Assembly (NCBI RefSeq): GCF_009931435.1
Contig: NZ_CP043414.1
DNA length: 64,000 nucleotides
Source: Escherichia coli
GTDB taxonomy: Bacteria; Pseudomonadota; Gammaproteobacteria; Enterobacterales; Enterobacteriaceae
Direction: 5' to 3' (one strand)
The position numbers were made by a program, and so were the translations under genes. How positions within the stretch are numbered: position 1 is the stretch's first letter; each line of letters begins with the position of its first letter. The notes under the pieces are model-generated. The model saw only the letters and a program-made list of their open reading frames with translations, did not search any database and was not told the origin of the DNA. Below are positions 59,921 through 59,989 of this stretch, one piece after another.

Positions 59921-59939
59921 TGAATTTGATAATCATTCT
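59921..59939 (+). promoter_or_regulatory. putative Fur box in mntH promoter
   Basis: tgaatttgataatcattctc resembles Fur consensus GATAATGATAATCATTATC; mntH is Fur-regulated by established knowledge. Confidence 0.45.
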
Positions 59940-59955
59940 CGTTTGACATAGCATG

Positions 59956-59977
59956 AAACATAGCAAAGGCTATGTTT
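59956..59977 (+). promoter_or_regulatory. MntR operator palindrome upstream of mntH
   Basis: Perfect inverted repeat aaacatagc-aaag-gctatgttt 13 nt upstream of the mntH ATG. Confidence 0.65.
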
Positions 59978-59989
59978 TAGAGGCACAAG

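Follow-up and report, generated by a model that had tools for sequence, protein, structure and literature searches.

That mntH is controlled by Fur and MntR, and by OxyR as a third regulator, has been textbook knowledge since about 2000–2002. The E. coli mntH promoter is described as carrying separate MntR, Fur, and OxyR sites, at which Fur and MntR repress independently of each other (PMC8632737, PMC4676285, PMC4361602). The dual repression of K-12 mntH by Fe2+-Fur and Mn2+-MntR is credited, in PMC8632737 and PMC4676285, to Patzer and Hantke 2001; repression by MntR:Mn2 is likewise described in PMC4361602, and an mntH-lacZ fusion was found to be repressed by Fur (PMC4676285). For Salmonella enterica, the reviews attribute to Kehres et al. 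2000 and 2002 that mntH is under OxyR, Fur, and MntR, and by their account MntR binds the sequence shared identically by K-12 and Salmonella in a Mn2+-dependent manner, with Mn repression abolished by mutation of the repeat or of mntR (PMC8632737, PMC4361602). In an information-theory scan, a Fur cluster of 19.9 bits, with two sites in 25 bp, was located at −56 of mntH (PMC2189734).

The window analyzed here is the whole 64,000 nt stretch of E. coli DNA from contig NZ_CP043414.1. Open reading frames and RefSeq annotation give the gene order pdeA (+), nupC (−, 58452–59693), mntH (+), ypeC (−), and yfeO (−), which places the palindrome and the Fur box discussed below in the divergent nupC–mntH intergenic region, just in front of mntH. 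A 407-base segment around the site has matches in 5,424 of 5,426 complete E. coli genomes, and strain FDAARGOS_497 is 100% identical to it. In 5,424 of the 5,426 genomes, the mntH product carries the annotation 'Nramp family divalent metal transporter'; mntR, which lies outside the window, was found in 5,421 of them. The region is the already known, well-studied mntH control region, with Fur and MntR sites at their textbook positions (Table 1). We regard it as very likely that it constitutes the mntH core promoter with two independent metal-dependent repressor sites, one for Fur and one for MntR. Both sites clear independent matrix tests widely, and in Enterobacteriaceae few non-coding bases around mntH are as conserved as theirs; the locus can therefore be annotated with confidence. 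As the mntH operators in this genome are those of K-12, the discovery value is small and the useful outcome is confirmation.

Table 1. Features of the nupC–mntH intergenic region and of mntH, in window coordinates.
Feature	Position	Strand	Basis
Candidate OxyR site with block CTATCA.AGAAATCA, just upstream of the −35	59879–59915		consensus count
Weak second Fur-matrix match, 7.3 bits, overlapping the main box	59917–59935	+	local matrix profile
Truncated ypeD, 8 codons and TGA (59944–59946)	59920–59946	+	comparison with K-12
Likely −35, TTGATA	59926–59931	+	promoter scan; invariant across loci
Fur box TGATAATCATTCTCGTTTG, minus-strand reading CAAACGAGAATGATTATCA	59927–59945		de novo Fur matrix
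Likely −10, TAGCAT	59949–59954	+	promoter scan; TAGCAT in most of 80 loci
MntR operator AAACATAGC-AAAG-GCTATGTTT, perfect 9+4+9 inverted repeat	59956–59977		repeat search and MntR matrix
Shine-Dalgarno GAGG, 6 nt before the ATG, conserved across loci	59980–59983	+	sequence
mntH CDS, 412 aa, Nramp-family Mn2+/H+ importer	59990–61228	+	ORF and RefSeq annotation

The abstract of Kehres et al. 2002 reportedly describes a Fur motif over the −35, an inverted repeat flanked by the −10 and the ribosome-binding site, and an OxyR motif just upstream of the −35. The promoter geometry found here matches this layout. A promoter scan identified TTGATA and TAGCAT, 17 nt apart, with 9 of 12 consensus matches, and the positions of these hexamers suggest a core start site near 59960–59962. 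They also place the Fur box over the −35 and most of the spacer, since the box takes in five of the six bases of TTGATA and stops 4 nt short of TAGCAT. Between the Fur box and the palindrome lie 10 bp. The palindrome itself starts 2 nt downstream of the likely −10; from its other end it is 2 nt to GAGG and 12 nt to the mntH ATG. In the TSS-seq list of Kim et al. 2012, two weak K-12 mntH starts are reported at −147 (5 reads) and −186 (11 reads) from the ATG, corresponding to window positions 59843 and 59804; no core-promoter start for K-12 mntH appears in that list. Transcripts from 59804 or 59843 would carry ypeD and the whole palindrome. As a separate observation, the A at 59946, where K-12 has G, creates a perfect TTGACA hexamer at 59943–59948, and no usable −10 was found at 16–18 nt after it.

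An earlier, sequence-only reading of this stretch had pointed to a GATAAT-type, Fur-like sequence about 20 nt upstream of the palindrome. GATAAT is indeed present at 59928–59933, 22 nt before the palindrome start, and the description as Fur-like can be refined to a full and very strong 19-bp Fur box. Counting mismatches against the 19-bp Fur consensus GATAATGATAATCATTATC was tried and abandoned: it selected 59922–59940 with 15 of 19 matches, a score tied by the coding-region sequence at 42564–42582. As this count proved too blunt, a de novo Fur matrix was used instead. It was built, with no prior motif and with mntH left out, from the intergenic regions of 14 classical K-12 Fur promoters (fepA-fes, fepD-entS, fepB-entC, fhuA, fecA, fecI, cirA, fiu, exbB, fhuE, tonB, sufA, fhuF, and bfd). 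The expectation-maximization motif search on these promoters returned the Fur box consensus CAAATGATAATAATTATCA, with an information content of 18.2 bits. With this matrix, the mntH box scores 24.7 bits, which makes it the top site of the window and places it above every training site (14.7–23.9 bits); the next site in the window reaches 13.25 bits. When 200 first-order Markov versions of the window were simulated, the Fur-matrix maxima averaged 11.9 bits and the highest was 19.76 bits, so that none reached 24.7. The matrix hit agrees with the published Fur cluster at −56, and the weak match that overlaps the main box is consistent with the published description of that cluster as comprising two sites. 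The second-best match in the window, CACATGATAAAGATATTCA (42569–42587, minus strand), scores below the weakest training site and lies just inside the 5' end of an ORF of 671 aa (42516–44531), where it is probably a chance occurrence.

The palindrome had been read as a perfect 9-bp inverted repeat lying 13 nt upstream of the ATG. Both parts of this description are correct: the arms AAACATAGC (59956–59964) and GCTATGTTT (59969–59977) are 100% complementary and lie 4 nt apart on either side of AAAG (59965–59968), and the ATG at 59990 is 13 nt after the last palindrome base, with 12 nt between. Even when up to three mismatches over the 18 specified bases are allowed, the palindrome is unique in the 64 kb window, and 100 shuffles averaged 0.02 matches. 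For an independent matrix, the upstream regions of K-12 mntS, dps, and mntP were subjected to a de novo motif search, again with mntH left out. The search yielded ATAGC-N4-GCTAT and recovered the sites AGATATAGCACAGGCTATATTA, AAGTATAGCACCGGCTATGTGT, and AGACATAGCTTAGGCTATATTA, respectively. The symmetrized 22-bp matrix derives from only three sites, and the margin is large nonetheless: the mntH palindrome scores 26.3 bits, within the range of the training sites (25.3–29.9 bits), compared with 12.3 bits for the next site in the window and 19.65 bits for the highest maximum among 200 simulated windows. The site thus has the core and the A/T-rich flanks of an MntR operator, and it lies in the promoter of a manganese gene, where, given the predicted start site, it would overlap the footprint of RNA polymerase, in a species that carries mntR. 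Scans with MntR and Fur matrices had been proposed in the sequence-only reading as a check, and both sites came through them by a wide margin. The known dual Mn/Fe control of mntH to which that reading appealed is supported by the two matrices, each built without mntH, as well as by the published work. A full-text literature search with the palindrome arm AAACATAGC returned only irrelevant papers.

Further MntR-like half-sites occur in the vicinity. The change from G to A at 59946 strengthens a third half-site, TGACATAGC (59944–59952, 11.9 bits), which overlaps the −10. A fourth, CAACATAGC (59790–59798, minus strand, 9.3 bits), is located some 160 nt upstream of the palindrome, near one of the published upstream start sites of mntH. 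Half-site matches above 9 bits number four within 302 bp at this locus, against 35 across the whole window.

The conservation of the operators was followed in 80 Enterobacteriaceae mntH loci, one genome per species, by aligning the window and 79 further loci over 170 nt upstream of the gene. The stretch from 59920 to 59987 is nearly invariant in these 80 loci, and the sequence upstream of about 59885 is poorly conserved. Within the conserved stretch, TTGATAATCATTC of the Fur box, TAGCAT, and AAACATAGCAAAGGCTAT of the palindrome show little or no variation. Another conserved block, CTATCA.AGAAATCA, is found at about 59890–59906. The perfect palindrome itself is present in 21 of the 80 loci, belonging to Escherichia, Citrobacter, Salmonella, and Kluyvera, where a G at 59974 completes the nine pairs. 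In the other 59, the right arm reads GCTATAT and the left arm is still AAACATAGC. The claim that the control region is well preserved stands as far as the operators are concerned, which are identical to those of K-12, but the perfect palindrome is limited to part of the family. In E. coli, the variant half-site GCTATAT is also that of the mntS and mntP sites. From genus to genus the AAAG spacer stays the same, and the spacers of MntR sites at other genes differ; an extra constraint, such as the start-site region or an RNA element, may thus act on these four bases. Two rearrangements were noticed among individual genomes. E. coli NZ_CM148320.1 has an 18-bp tandem duplication (CATCAATCTTTTCGTAGT...) at locus positions 467–502, aligned to window 59860–59877, upstream of the OxyR-like block. 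In Trabulsiella odontotermitis TbOT1.10, the Shine-Dalgarno segment is duplicated (ATATTTCAGAGGCAGA ATATTTCAGAGGCAGAAAATG) within the last 40 nt before the mntH ATG, which increases the distance between operators and ATG by 16 nt.

The conserved palindrome could also be read as an RNA element. Shi, Zhao and Kong (2014) claimed a Mn2+ riboswitch for Salmonella mntH and extended the claim to E. coli; the terminator of this published riboswitch may be the MntR palindrome. In one form of this reading, the operator of Escherichia, Salmonella, Citrobacter, and Kluyvera doubles as a stable hairpin (−9.4 kcal/mol, compared with −4.0 kcal/mol in the other genera) in transcripts from the upstream starts, adding a layer of control at the RNA level or coupled to an upstream ORF (ypeD or the ORF at 59953–59997). 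We consider such an addition doubtful; if true, it would reconcile the published riboswitch claim with the operator. In the stronger form, the palindrome is mainly RNA, and the hairpin with its following U residues would be the terminator-like OFF element of a Mn2+ riboswitch in the mntH leader. Folding lends this some substance, as a 27-nt RNA stretch forms a 9-bp hairpin of −9.4 kcal/mol (z = −4.98) that none of 200 shuffles equaled, followed by UUUU; it is the only notable hairpin between the promoter and the ATG, and the starts at −147 and −186 would transcribe the palindrome in full. The comparative data point in the other direction. No pair is altered on both sides; of 64 distinct sequences, 47 have lost the C-G pair 4 (C.A) with no compensating change, and 12 have lost pair 2; in the genera with a broken pair the hairpin falls to −4.0 kcal/mol, and the sequence is nevertheless conserved. 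This lack of base-pair covariation favors protein operators over an RNA structure. Together with the variant half-site shared with mntS and mntP, it agrees with a protein able to use A(C/T)ATAGC half-sites and disagrees with selection for RNA pairing. The motif also recurs at mntS, dps, and mntP as a protein site.

A terminator scan of 59600–60100 found none, the stem of the hairpin has three G-C pairs in nine, and only four U follow it. A search of Rfam at permissive thresholds found no relevant family (e.g., yybP-ykoY), the only matches being snoRNA and miRNA entries at chance level (E > 1). The predicted core start, at about 59961, falls inside the left arm, so that transcripts initiated there would retain only a stem of −2.7 kcal/mol. 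Their leader, at about 29 nt, would not have room for an aptamer. When the longer leader that begins at 59843 was folded, nothing unusual emerged apart from the palindrome hairpin (z = −1.29). An RNA role as the main function of the palindrome is thus unlikely, and for the specific OFF-element model only a slim chance is left. The comparative data argue clearly for recognition of DNA by protein, not RNA structure, as the source of the constraint on the palindrome, an argument that bears on the disputed riboswitch claim.

The same stretch has also been annotated as coding. In K-12, ypeD (b4819) has 29 codons, corresponds to window 59920–60009, and ends 20 nt inside mntH. Annotations of K-12 and of many further strains place it over exactly the stretch that holds the operators, its translation in K-12 was detected by ribosome profiling, and putative homologues were reported in Salmonella and Citrobacter koseri (bioRxiv 10.1101/2021.07.02.450978). 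Coding constraint on YpeD across both operators might accordingly be proposed, in place of regulatory sites, as the source of the conservation. In the window, however, the A at 59946 in place of G makes Trp codon 9 (TGG) a TGA stop, and the ORF ends after eight codons. Among 81 sequences, the ORF that begins at the conserved ATG reaches mntH in 36, meets an early stop in another 36, and lacks the ATG in the remaining 9, and a 1-nt indel changes the reading frame between genera although the DNA is still conserved. As the frame is disrupted in so many loci, coding constraint fails to explain the conservation, and we consider this explanation highly improbable. RefSeq labels at the position of ypeD vary by strain, from 'protein YpeD' to a 'hypothetical protein' of 14 or 18 codons or nothing at all; in the strain identical over this region, a 14-codon ORF at 59953–59997, which ends inside the mntH start, is annotated instead. 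A full-text literature search for YpeD as a single word returned only irrelevant papers.

That the palindrome and GATAAT are chance features of an intergenic region that is AT-rich, and whose Fur consensus count of 15/19 is equaled by a coding-region sequence, has practically no probability and is refuted by the shuffles (expectation 0.02 even with three mismatches), by Fur and MntR matrix scores above those of all 200 simulated windows, and by near invariance across 80 loci from many genera.

The preferred reading is therefore that of two protein operators placed over one promoter, where both exist, match their matrices, and are conserved. The dual Mn/Fe picture of the sequence-only reading is retained, and to it can be added a probable OxyR-type third input upstream, which that reading did not mention. 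The candidate OxyR site has 11 of 16 matches to ATAG-N7-CTAT-N7-ATAG-N7-CTAT, so that it belongs to the 17 best of about 64,000 positions. At three or fewer mismatches to this four-element consensus, no site is found in the window, none reaching 13/16. The conserved block CTATCA.AGAAATCA forms the left half of the candidate. The match is suggestive, and the candidate is consistent with the OxyR site of mntH described in reviews (PMC8632737), which it probably represents.

Binding itself, its metal dependence, and the exact start site enter the mechanism that we infer partly by way of the literature. A σ70 promoter (TTGATA, 17 nt, TAGCAT) would drive mntH. When iron is sufficient, Fe2+-Fur would occupy its box over the −35 and the spacer, so that RNA polymerase could not bind. 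When manganese is sufficient, a Mn2+-MntR dimer would bind the palindrome, roughly from −5 to +17 of the predicted start, where it might prevent open-complex formation or promoter escape and would, in addition, stand in the way of polymerases coming from promoters further upstream. OxyR, responding to H2O2, would most likely activate mntH from the conserved block that lies shortly before the −35. The separation of the two operators by 10 bp fits the published independent action of both repressors.

Comparison with known systems places the locus closest to E. coli K-12, which has the same neighbors (nupC, ypeC, and yfeO) and in which the Fur box, the −35, the −10, the palindrome, and the Shine-Dalgarno sequence are identical base for base. 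The locus departs from K-12 at one SNP in the interval from the Fur box to the −10, where position 59946 is A instead of the G of K-12, and at a few others upstream. Salmonella enterica shares the perfect palindrome AAACATAGCAAAGGCTATGTTT, the Fur core TTGATAATCATT, and the layout; its Fur box has the sequence ...CATTATCAATAAA, and ahead of its palindrome stands one more complete direct copy of AAACATAGCA. This extra copy occupies the position of the third half-site TGACATAGC in the window.

Among the MntR sites of E. coli, those of mntS, dps, and mntP have in common with mntH the core ATAGC-N4-GCTAT and A/T-rich flanks. They differ from it in their spacers, which are ACAG, ACCG, and TTAG, respectively, as opposed to AAAG at mntH, and of these four sites only that of mntH is a perfect 9+9 palindrome. 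At mntP, moreover, reviews describe MntR as an activator and not a repressor. The K-12 yobD–mntP intergenic region contains its MntR site AGACATAGCTTAGGCTATATTA along with another, partial one (AGCCAAAGCTATGTTT) and a sequence resembling a Fur box (AAATGAAAATCGTTATCAATAA), in a manner consistent with the published dual control of mntP by MntR and Fur. The classical Fur boxes of fepA-fes, fhuA, cirA, fecI, sufA, and others share the 19-bp motif with the mntH site. Unlike these boxes of iron-uptake genes, the mntH box serves a manganese importer and is accompanied, 10 bp downstream, by the site of a second metalloregulator.
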